Virus record (IMG/VR): IMGVR_UViG_2541047891_000004
Span: 1 to 40,492 of that record
DNA length: 40,492 nucleotides
Origin: a virus
Lineage: Duplodnaviria; Heunggongvirae; Uroviricota; Caudoviricetes
Direction: 5' to 3' (one strand)
Below are positions 11,575-25,946 of the stretch, in pieces. The notes beneath the pieces are model-generated. The model was not told the DNA's origin. It did not search any database and saw nothing but the letters and a program-made list of their open reading frames with translations. Numbering within the stretch: position 1 is the first letter of the stretch; each line of letters starts with the position of its first letter. A program made the translations under genes and the position numbers.

Positions 11575-11997
11575 ATGGCAAAAGTATTTACACCAGAAGA
11601 GCGGGAAAAAATTAAAGGGCAGGTTGTTGAACTTGTACGTCTGAGCGGTCGCGAGACGTTACGACAACTGGAAGCCAAGACAGGTGCGACAAGATATCTG
11701 ATGAGCATTCTCGCCAGGGAGCTGGTTGCCAGTGGTGATGTATACAACTCTGGCTACGGGTTATTCCCGTCTGAACAGGCCCGTAAGGACTGGCAAAACG
11801 CCCGCAAAAAACTCTCAAGGGCAAAGGTGAAAAAAACGGTTGTGGTTGATCCTGACCTTATCTGGTCATTACCTGACGGAGAAATACGTCGCTACGACAG
11901 GCGTCAGAACATAATCTGCCGTGAGTGCCGGAAGAGCGAAGTTATGCAGCGTGTACTGGCGTTTTATCAGGGGAATTTTGAGGAGGTGATGTTGTGA
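11575..11997 (+). CDS. Hypothetical phage protein (141 aa)
   Basis: ATG 11575 preceded by GGAGG; stop overlaps the next gene's GTG start. Confidence 0.5.
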   Translation: MAKVFTPEEREKIKGQVVELVRLSGRETLRQLEAKTGATRYLMSILARELVASGDVYNSGYGLFPSEQARKDWQNARKKLSRAKVKKTVVVDPDLIWSLPDGEIRRYDRRQNIICRECRKSEVMQRVLAFYQGNFEEVML

Positions 11998-12482
11998 GTG
12001 CGTCGGCTACCATTCTCGACATGTGCTGTGGCAGTCGCATGTTCTGGTTTGATAAGAATGACGAACGGGCGATATTTAGCGATATCAGAAAAGAAGAGCA
12101 CACATTGTGTGATGGACGACGCCTGATTATCTGTCCTGACCTGATAGCAGATTTTCGAGCATTACCATTTGCAGACGCATCGTTTCCGGTTGTTGTATTC
12201 GACCCTCCGCATCTTGAGCGTATTGGTGATAATGCCTGGATGGGAAAGAAATATGGACGGCTGAATAAAGATACCTGGCGTGATGATTTGCGGCAGGGAT
12301 TTAAAGAAGCCTTTCGTGTGTTGTGGCCACATGGCGTTCTGATTTTTAAATGGAATGAAACGCAAATACCTGTTCGCCAGATATTGGCACTGACCGACAG
12401 AAAGCCTGTTATCGGTCAACGAACAGGAAAGGGTGACAAGACCCACTGGATTCTTTTTATGAAGGAGGCATCCAGTGAGTAG
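11994..12482 (+). CDS. Putative small orphan DNA methyltransferase (N6-adenine type, 162 aa)
   Basis: GTG start with AGGAGG 7 nt upstream; motif I-like LDMCCGS and motif IV-like VVFDPPH. Confidence 0.5.
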   Translation: MSASATILDMCCGSRMFWFDKNDERAIFSDIRKEEHTLCDGRRLIICPDLIADFRALPFADASFPVVVFDPPHLERIGDNAWMGKKYGRLNKDTWRDDLRQGFKEAFRVLWPHGVLIFKWNETQIPVRQILALTDRKPVIGQRTGKGDKTHWILFMKEASSE

Positions 12483-15064: not shown

Positions 15065-15967
15065 ATGTATATGAGTCTTAGGTCTGAACGCACAAGGTGG
15101 GTGATGTTTTTGCCTTGTTCGGAAGCTGCCGTGGAATTTCGTCATGTTGTCGATTTAGTCTTTGGTGTGATGTGCCTCGAAAAGGCAGGCATCAATCCAG
15201 ATGATATTTCGATATATATAGATAGCCCTTCAATGAATTACGATGGTGCTTTTGCACTCGCTTCTAAATATCCTTTTAAGTCAAAACCATCAGCAGTTTT
15301 TTTTAATGACTTAAATGATAATACATATGATAACATAGTTATGTTTGTAACTGGTCATGGTGGCCCTCATGGACTTGATGCAAAGAAACCTATCCCACCA
15401 AGCCAATTACTGAAGGCTTTGAAGGAAGCCCCAAATCTTAAAAATGCTGTTGTTTATCTTGGGCAATGCTATGCCGGGACCTTTAATTTTGTAGGTGCTG
15501 GTAAACGGAACGAGTTTGAAGCCGATGTGATCTTAATCGGCGCGACTAATCTTAATGAAAGTCTTAGTTCTGGTACTTCAGAAACATTTGCTAATGGGGT
15601 GGTGTTTCCTTGGTCAGCAAATATTTTTCTTCTACATGTTTTTAAATGGATGTCATCTCCTACAGATATTGATGGTGATGGATTATACACTGTGATGGAT
15701 TCTTATAAACATGCAGGAATTTATACGAACTATGTTAATAAAAGAATTAAAAGCGAAGGTTTTAGCGATATAATTGATATGCATGCTGAATGCAATAGAC
15801 TCAAAGCTCTTGCCTCTATTGAAACAGGAGATTTTAATGTTGACTTTAAAAATAAAATGGAATTTGACGCTAAGAAATCTCAGTTTGACAATCTACTAAC
15901 TATACATCATACACATCAGGAGTGCTGGATTTTAAACTCACGCCCGGCACAAAAAATAGAGTTTTAG
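15065..15967 (+). CDS. Caspase-like (clan CD) cysteine peptidase domain protein (300 aa)
   Basis: Strand plus His-Gly (NIVMFVTGHGGPHG, His98) then strand plus Cys 37 residues later (AVVYLGQCYAG, Cys135); alternative start ATG 15071. Confidence 0.6.
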   Translation: MYMSLRSERTRWVMFLPCSEAAVEFRHVVDLVFGVMCLEKAGINPDDISIYIDSPSMNYDGAFALASKYPFKSKPSAVFFNDLNDNTYDNIVMFVTGHGGPHGLDAKKPIPPSQLLKALKEAPNLKNAVVYLGQCYAGTFNFVGAGKRNEFEADVILIGATNLNESLSSGTSETFANGVVFPWSANIFLLHVFKWMSSPTDIDGDGLYTVMDSYKHAGIYTNYVNKRIKSEGFSDIIDMHAECNRLKALASIETGDFNVDFKNKMEFDAKKSQFDNLLTIHHTHQECWILNSRPAQKIEF

Positions 15968-21075: not shown

Positions 21076-21258
21076 ATGAGCCGAAAACACTGGACACACA
21101 GAATGCCGCGAGCGGCGGCAAAATGGGCACTGGTAGCGATACTGGTGCCTTTTTTATTGGTGGGGTGCGTCAGCCTGGATAAGGCGCGCCAGCTTTTCGA
21201 TACAGCTTCTCAGGTCTGCGAAATTGTTGATAGTGTCCGGCGGTGTATGCAGAACTGA
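21076..21258 (+). CDS. Small lipoprotein (60 aa), possible lysis accessory
   Basis: Positively charged N-region, hydrophobic core WALVAILVPFLLVG, lipobox LVGC; mature part about 30 aa with 3 Cys. Confidence 0.5.
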   Translation: MSRKHWTHRMPRAAAKWALVAILVPFLLVGCVSLDKARQLFDTASQVCEIVDSVRRCMQN

Positions 21259-21431: not shown

Positions 21432-21539
21432 ATGTGGAAACCTACAGGTGACAAGTTAATCACCGCGTTGATTGACGGCAAGCCACAATACTTACGCATT
21501 GAAATGAGTGGTCAGCATGCTCGTTTGATTCGTGAGTAA
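21432..21539 (+). CDS. Possible small protein (35 aa)
   Basis: AGGAGA RBS 7 nt upstream; hairpin GCAGCCC/GGGCTGC follows. Confidence 0.3.
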   Translation: MWKPTGDKLITALIDGKPQYLRIEMSGQHARLIRE

Positions 21540-21601
21540 CAGGCATTACAGCAGCCCTTCAGTGTGAGGGGCTGCGATAATGTCAAAGCTCGTTATCATC
21601 A

Positions 21602-21645
21602 CCCGCCGCGCACCCAGCGCACTGGCCGATAGCGGGCTTTTTTAT
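21602..21645 (+). terminator. Putative intrinsic terminator upstream of the ParB-like gene
   Basis: Outer stem CCCGC/GCGGG around inner hairpin CCAG-CGCA-CTGG, followed by CTTTTTTATT. Confidence 0.4.
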
Positions 21646-21662
21646 TCATAAAGCGAGTCTGT

Positions 21663-22454
21663 ATGAGCGAGAAATTGAAGATCGTCTATCGCCCTTTACA
21701 AGAACTGTCTCCGTATGCACACAACGCCAGGACACACAGCACTGAGCAGGTGGCACAACTGGTAGAAAGCATTAAGCAATTCGGCTGGACTAATCCGGTG
21801 CTGATTGATGAAAAGGGCGAAATTATTGCTGGTCACGGTCGCGTTATGGCGGCTGAAGTGCTCAAAATGGATTCCATTCCGGTCATCGTTCTGTCTGGTT
21901 TGATGGATGATCAGAAAAAGGCGTACCGCCTGGCAGATAATCGCCTGCCGATGAATGCTGGCTGGGATGAAGATCTGTTACGGATGGAGCTGTCGGACCT
22001 AATCAATGCTGATTTTGATGTCTCCCTGACAGGCTTCAGCCCGACAGAAATTGATGAACTGTTGACGGATGTTTTGCCCGGTACAGAAAATGAGGAGGAG
22101 CCGTATACGACGAAAATTGATACACCTGTTTATGAGCCGTCAGGCGATAAACCGGATATCGGCGAACTGTACGACGATACGAAAACTCAGGAGCTGGTCA
22201 GCCGGATACGTTCGGCGTCCCTTGATCCTGATATCGAAAAATTCCTCCTGTGTGCGGCAGAACGCCACACAGTGTTTAATTTCAGCAGAATTGCGGACTA
22301 TTACGCTCACGCCCCCGCTGAAATTCAGTGTTTTTTCGAGGAGTCGGCACTGGTGATCATTGATTATCAGCAGGCTATTGAAAATGGATTTGTCCGGATG
22401 ACGCAGCGCATGGTGGAGATCATGCATGGTGGTGAGGAGGAGGAATATGCGTGA
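21663..22454 (+). CDS. ParB-like nuclease domain protein (263 aa)
   Basis: N-terminal ParB/Srx signature including IIAGHGR; C-terminal 150 aa unassigned. Confidence 0.7.
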   Translation: MSEKLKIVYRPLQELSPYAHNARTHSTEQVAQLVESIKQFGWTNPVLIDEKGEIIAGHGRVMAAEVLKMDSIPVIVLSGLMDDQKKAYRLADNRLPMNAGWDEDLLRMELSDLINADFDVSLTGFSPTEIDELLTDVLPGTENEEEPYTTKIDTPVYEPSGDKPDIGELYDDTKTQELVSRIRSASLDPDIEKFLLCAAERHTVFNFSRIADYYAHAPAEIQCFFEESALVIIDYQQAIENGFVRMTQRMVEIMHGGEEEEYA

Positions 22455-23379
22455 TGATTTTTGCGCCTTTATTCTGACTCACGGGCGACCGGACAAAGTT
22501 CTGACTTACCGGACGTTGCGTCGTGCTGGCTATACCGGGAAAATTTTTATCGTTGTTGATGATGAAGATAAGACACGGCATCAGTACATGGCTGAATTTG
22601 GTGAACAGGTGCTGGTGTTTTCCAAAGCCGATATCGCCAGTCGTTTTGACGAAGCCGATAATTTCTGTGACCGCCGCTCAATTTTTTACGCCCGTAATGC
22701 CTGTTTCGACCTGGCAAAACTGGTCGGGTGTAAATACTTCATTCAGCTCGATGATGATTATCACGAGTTTCAGTTTCGGGTGGATCGCAACTATGACCAG
22801 GCCTATTTTCCGATAAGGAAACTGGATGCGATCCTTTCTGAAATGCTGGCGTATTACGAATCAATACCTGCTCTTTCCATCGCTATGTCGCAGGGCGGGG
22901 ATTTTCTTGGTGACAATGGCGGCCATGCTTCATGGGTGAAACGCAAGGCAATGAACAGCTTTATCTGTTCGGTCGAGCGACCGTTCTCATTCATGGGGCG
23001 CATTAACGAGGATGTGAATACGTACACGAATCTCGGTCGCCGTGGTGAATTGTTTATGACGATCGGTGCTGTCCAGTTAGGGCAGAAACAGACGCAGAAA
23101 AACAGCGGCGGAATGACCGAGCTGTATCTGGATTCCGGAACCTACGTTAAAAGTTTTTACTCCGTCATGTATGCGCCGTCGTGCGTAAAAATCTCACTGA
23201 TGGGTGCCAGCCATAAACGCATTCACCATCAGGTCACCTGGAACAACGCTGCAGTAAAAATCCTTCACGAAAAATACAGGAAGAAGACACCCTGCATATC
23301 AATGGGGGTGACAAATGATTCCGTATTCGAAAGTCGAGTCTCTGGCAGCGTGCCGGATGACTGCACAACAAATAGCTGA
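22447..23379 (+). CDS. GT-A fold (family 2-like) glycosyltransferase-like protein, apparently soluble (310 aa)
   Basis: AFILTHGRPD and KIFIVVDDED N-terminal strands, then FYARNACFDLAKLVGCKYFIQLDDDY (ARN...DxD); GAGGAGGAGG RBS; 8-nt overlap with ParB-like gene. Confidence 0.55.
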   Translation: MRDDFCAFILTHGRPDKVLTYRTLRRAGYTGKIFIVVDDEDKTRHQYMAEFGEQVLVFSKADIASRFDEADNFCDRRSIFYARNACFDLAKLVGCKYFIQLDDDYHEFQFRVDRNYDQAYFPIRKLDAILSEMLAYYESIPALSIAMSQGGDFLGDNGGHASWVKRKAMNSFICSVERPFSFMGRINEDVNTYTNLGRRGELFMTIGAVQLGQKQTQKNSGGMTELYLDSGTYVKSFYSVMYAPSCVKISLMGASHKRIHHQVTWNNAAVKILHEKYRKKTPCISMGVTNDSVFESRVSGSVPDDCTTNS

Positions 23380-23566
23380 CGTTCTGGATGTTGATCTGAA
23401 CCGACTGAAAGAAAATCGGGAAGCAATGACAAATTTTTATGCGTCCATCCGTAAGGGCAGAGCGAAAGGTGAAGCCGAGCTACGGGCGGCATTGTTTAAG
23501 CTTGCCAGAAAAGGGGATGCCTTTGCCCTGCGCGAACTACTCAGGGTGGATAAAAATCAGGACTAA
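23315..23566 (+). CDS. Small putative DNA-binding protein (83 aa)
   Basis: ORF overlapping the 3' end of the GT-like gene and ending 4 nt before terS; start uncertain. Confidence 0.4.
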   Translation: MIPYSKVESLAACRMTAQQIADVLDVDLNRLKENREAMTNFYASIRKGRAKGEAELRAALFKLARKGDAFALRELLRVDKNQD

Positions 23567-23569
23567 CTG

Positions 23570-24664
23570 ATGAGCAGACCGGACTGGGGGGCGTTGCAGC
23601 AGGAGTATATTGCTGAATACACCCGCTCCGGTATATCTCCGGTGGCATGGTGTGAAGCAAGGGGACTGAATTACGCAACAGCCCGTCGTTACATCAAAAA
23701 ACCTCCGAAAAATGCGCAGACAGAAATGCGCAAAACTGCGCAAAAAAGTGCGCAGAAAAAATCTGCGCAGACTGCGCAAAAGCGGAACGGAAAATCTCAG
23801 ATAAAAAAGTCAGTATCCGATGCGTGCCTGAATGAGGGCGACGCAGAGGAAATTTCATTCTGTCCCGATGAATTCGGCATTTCTGACCAGCAGGCTAAGT
23901 TTGCGATGCTGGTTGCTCAGGGGAAAAAGCCGACAGAGGCATACCGACTGGCTGGTTATGAGGGGCAAGGTGCGACAGCTAACAGCAACGCCAGCCGTAT
24001 GCTTAGAAATGCCAGGGTTTATCGTGCCATTAGCTACTTCCGCAATCAGTACCAGAAACGCTATACCGCAGACCTGGATTTACTGGTGAGCCAGTTGATG
24101 GCTATTGTCCAGGCCGACCCCAATCAGTTGGCACAATTTCGCCGTGTTAACTGCCGTTATTGCTGGGGCGAGAATCATCTCTACCAGTGGCGTGATATAG
24201 CAGAATTCGACAAGGCAGCGGCGCAGGCTTCCAGAGATGGCAAACCCGAACCGGAATATGGAGGCCTCGGCTTTGTTGATAACGCCATACCCAATCCGGA
24301 CTGCCCGAAGTGCTGCGGTGAGGGAACGGGACAGCTTTATATGGCTGATACCACTCTGCTTGATGGGGATGCGCGGCAATTATATGCAGGGGCAAAACTC
24401 GGAAAATTCGGCGTTGAGATCCTGCTAGAGGATAAGGCTGCCGCCCGGCGTGAATTGTTGCGTTTGCTTTCTGCTGGCGGGGCTTTATGTGCAGATAAGC
24501 GGCTACAGGAACTGGAAATTGAACGACGCAGAATGGAAAACCAGAAGCTGCGCAAAGAGATCGAAACGGTGGAAGATAATGAACATCCCCAGCCTGTGGC
24601 GATCAATATTAATGTGGTTGATGCCAGAGTAAGGAGTGATGAAGATGATCTCTCCGACGCTTAA
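23570..24664 (+). CDS. Terminase small subunit (364 aa)
   Basis: N-terminal HTH and Terminase_2-like segment FGISDQQAKFAMLVAQGKKPTEAYRLAGY; directly upstream of and overlapping terL. Confidence 0.7.
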   Translation: MSRPDWGALQQEYIAEYTRSGISPVAWCEARGLNYATARRYIKKPPKNAQTEMRKTAQKSAQKKSAQTAQKRNGKSQIKKSVSDACLNEGDAEEISFCPDEFGISDQQAKFAMLVAQGKKPTEAYRLAGYEGQGATANSNASRMLRNARVYRAISYFRNQYQKRYTADLDLLVSQLMAIVQADPNQLAQFRRVNCRYCWGENHLYQWRDIAEFDKAAAQASRDGKPEPEYGGLGFVDNAIPNPDCPKCCGEGTGQLYMADTTLLDGDARQLYAGAKLGKFGVEILLEDKAAARRELLRLLSAGGALCADKRLQELEIERRRMENQKLRKEIETVEDNEHPQPVAININVVDARVRSDEDDLSDA

Positions 24665-25946
24665 TGTGCCTCAGGCGCGATTTCTTTCAATGCCCCATAA
24701 ATTTAAAGCCTATATTGCTGGTTTTGGCTCGGGCAAAACATGGGTTGGGTGTGGCGGCATATGCAAGGGGATTTGGGAGCATCCAGGTATAAATCAGGGA
24801 TATTTTGCGCCAACGTATCCCCAAATTCGCGATATTTTTTACCCTACAGTGGAAGAAGTTGCTGCTGACTGGGGATTGAACGTAAAAATTAATGAGGGAA
24901 ATAAAGAGGTTCACTTTTATTACGGACGCCAGTATCGGGGAACCACTATCTGCAGATCGATGGAGAAGCCACAAACGATCGTCGGTTTCAAAATTGGTAA
25001 TGCGCTGGTGGATGAACTGGACATTTTGCCGAAGGAAAAAGCCAGAACGGCGTGGCGCAAGATAATTGCGCGTATGCGTTATAAGATTGATGGACTTCGC
25101 AACGGTATTGACGTTACAACCACGCCGGAAGGATTCAAATTTGTCTACGAGCAGTTTGTTAAAGCCGTGCGTGAAAAAACAGAGCTGGCCTCACTGTATG
25201 GTCTGGTGCAGGCATCTACTTTCGATAATGAAAAGAACCTGCCAGCAGATTACATTCCTTCGCTTCTTGAATCATACCCTCCAGAGCTGATTAAAGCCTA
25301 TCTTCGAGGACAGTTTACTAACCTGACAAGTGGTACTGTTTACCATCAGTTTGACCGGAAACTGAATAATTGCGAAGAAGTGGAGCAGCCAGGGGAGCCG
25401 ATTTATATTGGGATGGATTTTAACGTTGGAAAGATGGCGGGGATCGTCCATGTGCTGCGTTTGGGGCTTCCATGTGCGGTAACTGAAATCATCAATGCCT
25501 ACGATACGCCGGATATGATCCGCATCATTAAAGAACGCTTCTGGCTGTATGACGGGAATGATTACCGGAAAGTGAGGGAGATTTATATTTATCCAGATGC
25601 TTCCGGAGATTCCAGAAAATCAAGTAACGCAAGTACGACGGATATAGCCCAGCTTAAGCAGGCTGGTTTTAACGTTGTGGTGAACAGCTCGAACCCGCCA
25701 GTAAAAGATCGCGTTAACTCAATGAATGCAATGTTCTGCAATGCCAATGGTGAGCGTCGCTATAAAGTTAATGTGAAGCGTTGTCCGGTATATGCCGAAT
25801 CTCTGGAGCAACAGGTCTGGGATGATAAGGGGGAGCCTGATAAAAAATCTGGCAATGATCACCCGAATGATGCCGGAGGTTATTTCATCGTTAAGCAATT
25901 CCCTATTGTCAAACCGACCGGAAGAGTCACATCACTTCGGATTTAA
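24636..25946 (+). CDS. Terminase large subunit (436 aa)
   Basis: Walker A AGFGSGKT; C-terminal nuclease-like acidic residues; position before portal. Confidence 0.85.
   Translation: MMKMISPTLNVPQARFLSMPHKFKAYIAGFGSGKTWVGCGGICKGIWEHPGINQGYFAPTYPQIRDIFYPTVEEVAADWGLNVKINEGNKEVHFYYGRQYRGTTICRSMEKPQTIVGFKIGNALVDELDILPKEKARTAWRKIIARMRYKIDGLRNGIDVTTTPEGFKFVYEQFVKAVREKTELASLYGLVQASTFDNEKNLPADYIPSLLESYPPELIKAYLRGQFTNLTSGTVYHQFDRKLNNCEEVEQPGEPIYIGMDFNVGKMAGIVHVLRLGLPCAVTEIINAYDTPDMIRIIKERFWLYDGNDYRKVREIYIYPDASGDSRKSSNASTTDIAQLKQAGFNVVVNSSNPPVKDRVNSMNAMFCNANGERRYKVNVKRCPVYAESLEQQVWDDKGEPDKKSGNDHPNDAGGYFIVKQFPIVKPTGRVTSLRI

Follow-up and report, generated by a model that had tools for sequence, protein, structure and literature searches.

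The DNA analysed here, hereafter the window, is the whole 40,492-nucleotide viral record IMGVR_UViG_2541047891_000004 of IMG/VR. This 40.5-kb stretch is a Rac-like lambdoid prophage of Escherichia coli, and our subject is a pair of overlapping genes that it carries between its lysis and terminase genes. The first gene encodes a protein with a ParB-fold N-terminal domain (N-domain) and an acidic C-terminal domain (CTD), referred to below as the partner, and the second encodes a soluble glycosyltransferase (GT). The pair is a real, conserved and widespread two-gene module, a variant of the machinery known to hypermodify phage DNA that includes an adaptor domain not recognised before. Both open reading frames (ORFs) were recovered at the coordinates and lengths reported in a first-pass annotation made from the sequence alone. 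The features of the pair are as follows:

21663..22454, + strand: partner gene, 263 aa; ParB-fold N-domain, linker and acidic CTD
21663..22067, + strand: ParB/Srx (ParB-CTPase fold) N-domain, residues 1-135; from Pfam, phrog, PADLOC and ParB structure alignment
22089..22454, + strand: CTD, residues 143-263; acidic, with an acidic tail at its end; no Pfam or PDB match
22104..22139, + strand: motif Y-T/S-x-K-I-x-x-P-x-Y-E-P, residues 148-159, at the start of the CTD; from alignments
22434..22444, + strand: Shine-Dalgarno sequence GAGGAGGAGGA for the GT, embedded in the codons of the partner's acidic tail
22447..23379, + strand: GT gene, 310 aa, product beginning MRDDF...; soluble GT-A enzyme of the TAGT family, PF20691

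The glycosyltransferase and its ParB-like partner

The GT matches PF20691 (TAGT, TET-associated glycosyltransferase) over residues 8-222 with 123.8 bits against a cut-off of 27.5 (E 1.2e-35), and phrog_842 with an E value of 2e-103. PF20691 was present in all 120 homologues listed, some of which carry the PGAP label "GREB1-related protein". The enzyme had been called GT2-like: profile and fold bear out a GT-A glycosyltransferase, while the family is TAGT and not GT2 proper. The fold was examined by structure prediction, and the top Foldseek hits of the AlphaFold model were exclusively GT-A glycosyltransferases (SpsA, glycogenin and GpgS in the PDB, TAGT phage proteins in BFVD), the model being confident for residues 1-150 only and poor in the C-terminal half (predicted local distance difference test, pLDDT, <50). 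All of the motifs first picked out from the sequence, IIAGHGR in the partner and AFILTHGRPD, KIFIVVDDED, ARN and QLDDD in the GT, were found and fall in invariant columns of a 28-homologue alignment. Residues R83, D102-D104 and E188-D189 of the GT are likewise invariant in 28 homologues. They correspond to the active-site pattern R...DDD...ED(Y/F) described for phage GT-A DNA glycosyltransferases and the trypanosome base-J glucosyltransferase JGT (bioRxiv 10.1101/2023.12.21.572611), with V190 as the third motif residue where that pattern has Y/F. The expected lack of a transmembrane anchor is supported by a highest 19-residue Kyte-Doolittle mean of 1.08. Beyond the Pfam model, residues ~200-290 form a conserved, basic region with an isoelectric point (pI) of 9.7. 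Relatives measure about 288 aa and lack the last ~20 residues, which form an unconserved tail. At window positions 23315-23379 this tail extends 65 nt into the next ORF (23 nt if the PGAP start is used), and it suggests a recombination junction or the recent loss of an ancestral stop in the E. coli gene.

Characterised members of PF20691 include JGT, which acts on 5-hydroxymethyluracil (5hmU), and phage GT-A enzymes from metaviromes, which act on 5-hydroxymethylcytosine (5hmC or hmC; bioRxiv 10.1101/2023.12.21.572611). The T6 secondary glucosyltransferase, which extends glucosyl-hmC, is also stated to belong to it (bioRxiv 10.64898/2025.12.06.692756). The human protein GREB1, also of the TAGT family, O-GlcNAcylates protein, by published report (PMC7968844). 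The GT described here shares its Pfam family, the GT-A fold and the R...DDD...ED residues with JGT and the phage DNA glycosyltransferases; like the phage enzymes it is soluble and often has ParB-like and terminase genes nearby. Those enzymes, however, act on 5hmC or 5hmU supplied by a neighbouring methyltransferase/dioxygenase or hydroxymethylase, none of which was detected here. In addition, the present clade differs from the GTs of C5-MT/5mYOX (TET/JBP dioxygenase) clusters by its conserved basic C-terminal extension, its obligate CTD partner and the V as third motif residue. The T2/T6 beta-glucosyl-HMC-alpha-glucosyltransferase is a further relative by Pfam family and fold, and PHROG-based annotation gives its name to phage homologues of the GT. 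The T6 enzyme extends a glucose placed on hmC by a primary GT, whereas the prophage has neither hmC nor a primary GT.

The presence of an N-terminal ParB/Srx-type domain in the partner is borne out by profile and by predicted structure. The match to Pfam ParB_N lies just above the cut-off (28.3 bits against 26.3, E 1.8e-6) and the one to TIGR00180 below it (35.6 bits against 58.45), and the full-length protein matches phrog_620 at 4.9e-89. The structure model matches ParB-CDP, Noc, PadC and KorB (6sdk, 7bnr, 7nfu with 144 columns and a root-mean-square deviation of 3.4, 6ryk and 8qa9). It is laid out as a nucleotide-binding domain (NBD) at residues 1-95, helices at 103-134, a low-confidence linker at 136-169 and a helical/strand CTD at 170-255. 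The N-domain finds its greatest similarity in the ParB module of DNA methyltransferase fusions, to which residues 3-146 are clearly homologous (phrog_498, 1.7e-50), and residues 13-153 match PADLOC MTase_II at 1e-38, while residues 143-263 gave no match to methyltransferases. In phage ParB-DNA methyltransferase fusions (ParB_N with N6_N4_Mtase or Methyltransf_23), which also occur in prophages and often beside the terminase, this homologous module is covalently joined to the enzyme; here it is joined to the CTD, and the enzyme is separate and translationally coupled. A recent survey describes the ParB-methyltransferase architecture as typical of prophages and mentions no link to glycosyltransferases.

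With the canonical ParB, Noc and KorB CTP clamps the partner has in common the fold of the N-domain and a Box II GxxR, present as GHGR and aligned with the canonical GERR, in which G57 and the phosphate-binding R60 are invariant. It departs from them in that the catalytic Glu of GERR is replaced by His and in being very acidic (pI 4.4, net charge -27). The Box I Arg (R23) varies among close relatives of the partner. A Pfam profile scan of the partner found no parS-binding helix-turn-helix (HTH) and no PF23552 dimerisation domain, and the annotation of near-identical prophages shows no ParA in the prophage. The earlier description of a DNA-binding nuclease-fold protein is therefore doubtful, given this charge, the lack of a detectable HTH and the fact that the invariant part of the protein is the CTD and not the ParB fold. 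A parallel in layout is provided by ParB homologues that consist of an NBD, a linker and a CTD without a DNA-binding domain, and that activate phage 5mYOX enzymes on double-stranded DNA (PMC13229309). The ParB176 protein of the 5mYOX176/ParB176 pair (O'Toole et al., PNAS 2026, PMC13229309) shares with the partner, by its published description, the order of NBD, short helical segment, disordered linker and CTD, and its gene too lies beside that of a DNA-modifying enzyme. Here, by contrast, the client is a GT with no 5mYOX, and it is the CTD that is conserved, the ParB fold being exchangeable or absent. The view that the pair cannot be assigned to a described system thus no longer stands, as the GT is a TAGT and the partner has the layout of the 5mYOX-activating ParBs.

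The C-terminal part of the partner, which had been left as an unassigned 150-aa region, is an unannotated acidic domain of ~115 aa and the obligate partner of this TAGT clade. It gave no match in Pfam, PDB, NCBIfam or PADLOC and appears in PHROGs only as the tail of phrog_620. Two candidate identities were rejected: "Phage L5 gene 47-like", for which the Pfam matches were sub-threshold only, and an armadillo repeat, for which matches in a PDB profile search were judged to be due to chance. Invariant in the domain are the motifs YTxKIxxPxYEP, AAxRHTxFxF..IADYYAH and SALVIIDF..AIExG, followed by the acidic tail. The Y, P and Y of YTxKIxxPxYEP are invariant in 30 diverse sequences and in 31 atypical ones. 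The model of the CTD is poor, and the low-confidence stretch at residues 136-169 (pLDDT <50) covers this motif. No description of the CTD, or of a strict CTD-TAGT pairing, was found in the literature. The 2013 NAR paper by Iyer et al., which named TAGT and reportedly discussed ParB in packaging-linked modification, may show a ParB-TAGT neighbourhood.

Pairing, distribution and selection

Partner and GT genes overlap by 8 nt (ATGCGTGA), as the first-pass annotation had noticed, and this stop/start overlap, together with the Shine-Dalgarno sequence inside the partner's tail, points to translational coupling. Conservation of the arrangement was followed in a GT-based sample of 80 IMG/VR loci (52-100% identity) and nine others. 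A partner homologue lies directly upstream of the GT in 88 of the 89 loci, the exception being cut by a contig end, and a reciprocal search with a CTD profile found a TAGT directly downstream in 68 of 68 assessable new loci. The stop/start overlap measures 8 nt in 38 of 84 loci and 11 nt in another 38 (76 of 84 together). When the partner profile was split, the CTD was detected in essentially all loci at 110-220 bits, and the score of the ParB N-domain ranged from 240 bits down to 11 or the domain was missing. The GT is the best conserved (median pairwise identity 57%), followed by the CTD (49%) and the N-domain (37%). In a mirror-tree comparison the correlation with the GT is only modestly higher for the CTD than for the N-domain (rho 0.39 vs 0.25), which is weak evidence.

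The CTD family comprises ~1,200 clusters at 50% identity, and the domain is C-terminal in all of them. Among the best 150 clusters, 106 combine ParB_N with the CTD, 27 have a divergent N-terminus, 15 consist of the CTD only, and one (P0383) is a single 534-aa protein combining TAGT, ParB_N and CTD. A second apparent fusion (P0241) was rejected because it looks like a frameshift or assembly artefact. The divergent N-termini are probably ParB domains too, judging from a consensus that keeps GxxR and from Pfam ParB_N hits in 8 of 31 atypical proteins. Proteins made up of the CTD only are 135-153 aa long and occur in three loci of the sample (L067, L080 and L089) and in Vibrio phage pv27. In L080 (7671-9727) and L089 (1926-3982) a gene for such a protein (135 aa) is followed by one for a 255-282-aa Methyltransf_23-like protein and then by the TAGT.

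Both genes were confirmed in Lactobacillus phage phi jlb1 and in the haloarchaeal virus HHTV-2, and the GT match alone was obtained in Lactobacillus phages c5, LL-Ku and phiLdb and in Nocardia phage NTR1. GT sequences from the archaeal virus HHTV-2 and from phages of E. coli, Lactobacillus, Nocardia and Vibrio show 42-47% identity. Of 5,426 complete E. coli genomes, 1,566 match the DNA of the pair, 889 of them over at least 80% of its length. Two published surveys have met related enzymes from another side. One set aside ~65% of its GT contigs for want of a nearby oxidase or hydroxymethylase, and noted ParB-like genes near GT-A enzymes (bioRxiv 10.1101/2023.12.21.572611). The other found "solitary" homologues of the T6 GT in 288 of 753 phage genomes and left them unexplained (bioRxiv 10.64898/2025.12.06.692756). 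The present results show that one large conserved clade of such orphan TAGTs is not solitary: it is always accompanied by a CTD partner, in which the CTD is usually carried on a ParB fold.

In a comparison of the window with one E. coli prophage copy (L012), the ratio of nonsynonymous to synonymous substitution rates (dN/dS) is ~0.1 for the GT and ~0.2 for the partner. More distant copies gave similar values where dS could be estimated, and the proteins of the pair keep 75-80% identity where synonymous sites are saturated. By these estimates both genes are under purifying selection and are not decaying. The finding bears on the idea that the cassette is an inert or decaying leftover of a TET/JBP-ParB-GT hypermodification cluster that has lost its oxidase. 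Family name and literature do tie TAGT and ParB to 5mYOX clusters, and the K-12 Rac prophage keeps only a 254-nt remnant, ynaK. The idea is largely refuted, and we give it hardly any credence, as it is contradicted by the substitution rates and the retained protein identity, by the invariance of all catalytic residues of the GT, by the 889 complete E. coli genomes that keep at least 80% of the cassette's DNA, and by the roughly 160 loci from very different viruses, in which an arrangement without oxidase is the norm. As to ynaK itself, it matches the first 254 nt of the partner gene (window 21663-21916, 92% identity) and is followed by ydaY; by this alignment it is a deletion stump of the cassette's ParB-like gene.

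In most loci the cassette lies directly upstream of TerS/TerL, with terminases of several unrelated families, and in a 191-kb Vibrio phage it is found among replication genes. No third gene is consistently present across the loci. DNA methyltransferase genes recur as neighbours: L031 and L037 have Methyltransf_23 genes just before the pair, and L075 has a ParB-N6/N4 methyltransferase as a neighbour. L031 also has a weak GT9-like protein, and L003 has a second TAGT paralogue beside an HNH gene, which adjoins the pair. The cassette might be a packaging or partition accessory in which the ParB-like protein serves the terminase as a nuclease or pac-site factor; genes of the ParB-like and HNH kinds are often found next to terminases. 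Against this, some phages do without the ParB fold, the partner lacks the catalytic Glu of the GERR motif, and neither ParA nor parS nor an HTH was found. Equally, the GT might act on a host envelope glycan in lysogenic conversion, in the way of the transferases of serotype-converting phages. A wall-teichoic-acid transferase is among the closest PDB structures to phage GT-A enzymes (bioRxiv 10.1101/2023.12.21.572611), and related prophages carry LT-II toxin cargo at the same spot. The enzyme has no membrane segment, however, it would be expressed from the late lytic operon, behind terminators, and the hosts of the viruses that carry the pair, Gram-negative, Gram-positive, actinobacterial and archaeal, have envelopes unrelated to one another. 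An accessory role of either kind is very improbable.

The acceptor and a proposed mechanism

The data presented above lead us to propose that the pair is a self-contained, late-expressed, adaptor-assisted glycosylation cassette that most probably acts on phage DNA once it has been replicated and before it is packaged, or while packaging is under way; we assign this proposal a probability of roughly 0.45. The TAGT-family GT-A enzyme would use a nucleotide sugar. The acidic CTD of its dedicated partner would dock on the GT, whose residues 200-290 are basic, so that the two proteins would form a complex. Where it is present, the NTP-binding ParB fold would bring the enzyme to DNA, or keep it there, by an NTP-dependent switch. 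Parallels would be the ParB homologues that activate phage thymine dioxygenases on double-stranded DNA and the ParB module fused to phage DNA methyltransferases. The role of the modification would be the protection or marking of phage DNA; DNA or virion glycosylation and an anti-restriction function, as suggested in the first-pass annotation, are plausible.

Distribution constrains the choice of acceptor. A GT that is 42-47% identical in viruses of hosts with unrelated envelopes and proteomes implies a universal acceptor, hence a nucleic acid or the partner protein, and an acceptor common to all these hosts excludes host envelope structures. Between the two, DNA is favoured by the record of the family, the homology between the N-domain and the methyltransferase modules, the methyltransferase neighbours, the position beside terminase or replication genes and the precedent of the ParB-dependent dioxygenases.

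Several observations weigh against DNA as the target, chief among them the missing source of a modifiable base. Canonical DNA bases have no hydroxyl acceptor. No TET/JBP enzyme, C5-methyltransferase or thymidylate-synthase-like hydroxymethylase was found in the window or its two annotated near-twins by Pfam scans and PGAP. No Tet_JBP occurs in the 10 genes immediately upstream of the pairs, nor among the matches listed for 86 upstream ORF families of diverse loci, a search made in two sets; the listings leave out the 11-12 weakest families of each set (matches weaker than about 3e-9 and 2e-7, respectively), so that a very divergent oxidase could have escaped. Because ordinary E. coli DNA has no base hydroxyl, either the DNA modification is new chemistry, or it is sparse, or the DNA model is wrong. 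Unless a 5-hydroxymethyl-pyrimidine comes from some source not yet recognised, this usual acceptor is not available, and a modification on DNA would be new chemistry or sparse and site-specific. An argument against dense modification comes from phage phiJL001, which has a T6-like GT from the same wider family and lacks genes for base synthesis; restriction enzymes digest its DNA normally (PMC4276943). In addition, the partner is acidic (pI 4.4) and has no DNA-binding domain recognisable in the Pfam scan, and partners made up of the CTD only show that the ParB module is dispensable in some phages. The glycosylation of protein by the family member GREB1 (PMC7968844) and the poor structure models of the CTD and of the C-terminal half of the GT (pLDDT <50) also count on this side.

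A more specific and unlikely form of the DNA model is that the CTD-TAGT pair glycosylates DNA without prior base oxidation, the adaptor domain and, in most phages, an NTP-switch ParB fold delivering the enzyme and the sugar being placed on a canonical or methylated base, on the backbone or on packaged DNA ends. The clade is maintained by selection with no oxidase detected, and the known DNA-acting TAGT enzymes all decorate bases hydroxymethylated beforehand. If it were true, about one in six complete E. coli genomes would carry a Rac-like prophage with a new DNA modification, which would also occur in viruses of bacteria and archaea.

The opposite hypothesis is that a protein is glycosylated. 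In its simplest form the acceptor would be the partner, O-glycosylated at the Tyr/Thr motif YTxKIxxPxYEP, so that the two genes would encode an enzyme and its substrate, in the manner of glycogenin self-glucosylation; alternatively, terminase or virion proteins would be modified. The glycosylated acidic protein would have its function in packaging or as a decoy against host defence. In favour of this hypothesis, no hydroxymethyl-pyrimidine source was found, whereas Ser, Thr and Tyr hydroxyls need no precursor, and GREB1, of the same family, offers the precedent of protein O-GlcNAcylation (PMC7968844). It would also explain the conservation between bacterial and archaeal viruses, as the acceptor would travel with the enzyme. 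It is further favoured by three properties of the partners: (i) it is the CTD, and not the DNA-related ParB fold, that always accompanies the GT; (ii) the Y, T/S, P and Y of the motif are invariant, in a low-confidence linker, in very diverse partners including those made up of the CTD only; and (iii) the acidity of the partner equals that of known DNA mimics. On the other hand, three of the four characterised TAGT branches act on DNA, the N-domain is the same as that fused to DNA methyltransferases, and DNA methyltransferase genes are recurrent neighbours. In the ParB-5mYOX precedent, moreover, the ParB is an activator and not a substrate, and the motif may be simply a strand of the CTD fold, the model predicting a short strand at residues 149-151. 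On balance a protein acceptor is a serious alternative, though somewhat unlikely.

With this cassette, the set of enzymes that repurposed ParB proteins serve comes to include a glycosyltransferase, and the CTD defines a new domain family. The two opposite hypotheses, DNA or the partner protein as acceptor, are cheaply testable in E. coli.

The surrounding prophage

From left to right the prophage carries intR/xisR on the ttcA side, recET, kilR, sieB, a Q-like antiterminator, two tRNAs, holins and a GH108 endolysin, and in its right part the terminase, a P22-type capsid module and a siphovirus tail. The pair thus lies, as first described, between lysis genes (holins and GH108 endolysin) and TerS/TerL. 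A prophage of E. coli SC418 is near-identical (99-100% over most of the left ~25 kb of the window) and differs from the terminase onward; a prophage of strain A41 is a 96-97% relative. The features that flank the pair are:

21542..21584, + strand: first strong hairpin, downstream of the lysis cassette; from RNA folding and megablast matches
21585..21649, + strand: second, long hairpin (about 21585-21640) followed by the U-run UUUUUUAUU; terminator-like, just before the pair
23315..23566, + strand: small ORF, 83 aa (69 aa by PGAP in relatives), resembling a terminase small-subunit segment (phrog_309, 2.5e-22)
23570..24664, + strand: TerS, directly downstream of the locus; from profile matches and near-identical prophage annotation
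24636..25946, + strand: TerL, from the same evidence

Folding of the RNA from 21536-21662 gave two strong hairpins with a minimum free energy of -53.5 kcal/mol (z = -5.1; 0 of 200 shuffles as stable). With the U-run after the second of them, this agrees with the proposal that the pair stands behind a terminator-like structure in the late operon. The second hairpin was missed by a simple terminator scanner because its loop is long. The first is perfect and GC-rich (GCAGCCCCTT...AAGGGGCTGC), and by megablast it is 94-96% identical in phage phiP27 and in an Actinobacillus phage despite unrelated flanks; it may be a mobile terminator or a recombination boundary. In related ETEC-type E. coli and Yersinia prophages, the lysis genes are separated from the ParB-like gene by inserted genes for the A and B subunits of heat-labile enterotoxin LT-II (L008, 2180-3332; prophages H15-H20), in the slot that holds small ORFs and the hairpins in the window.

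Homologues of the small ORF at 23315..23566 (cluster c4) lie between GT and TerS in 28 loci, many of them enterobacterial relatives, and are of contextual interest only. No parS-like or other meaningful repeats were found near the pair, the sole notable ones being within terS. There, at 23695-23780, ~six TGCGCA-containing repeats with a 36-nt periodicity encode a K/A/Q-rich repetitive stretch of TerS; the cluster could be a pac recognition site.

Three further ORFs deserve mention. A hypothetical ORF at 15065..15967 (300 aa), which adjoins hokD in the early-right accessory region, has a Peptidase_C13 (caspase/legumain-like) match at 4e-6 and may be a defence or abortive-infection gene. The only methyltransferase-like ORF found in the window, at 11994..12482 (162 aa), gave sub-threshold matches to class-I S-adenosylmethionine (SAM) methyltransferases. 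PGAP labels the copy in the twin prophage "SAM-dependent methyltransferase"; a C5 DNA methyltransferase would need a larger protein. Finally, the ORF at 21076-21258 (60 aa), downstream of the endolysin, has a lipobox-like LVGC after a hydrophobic stretch and looks like an o-spanin-type lipoprotein; a terminator-like hairpin at 21125-21150 overlaps its 5' part.

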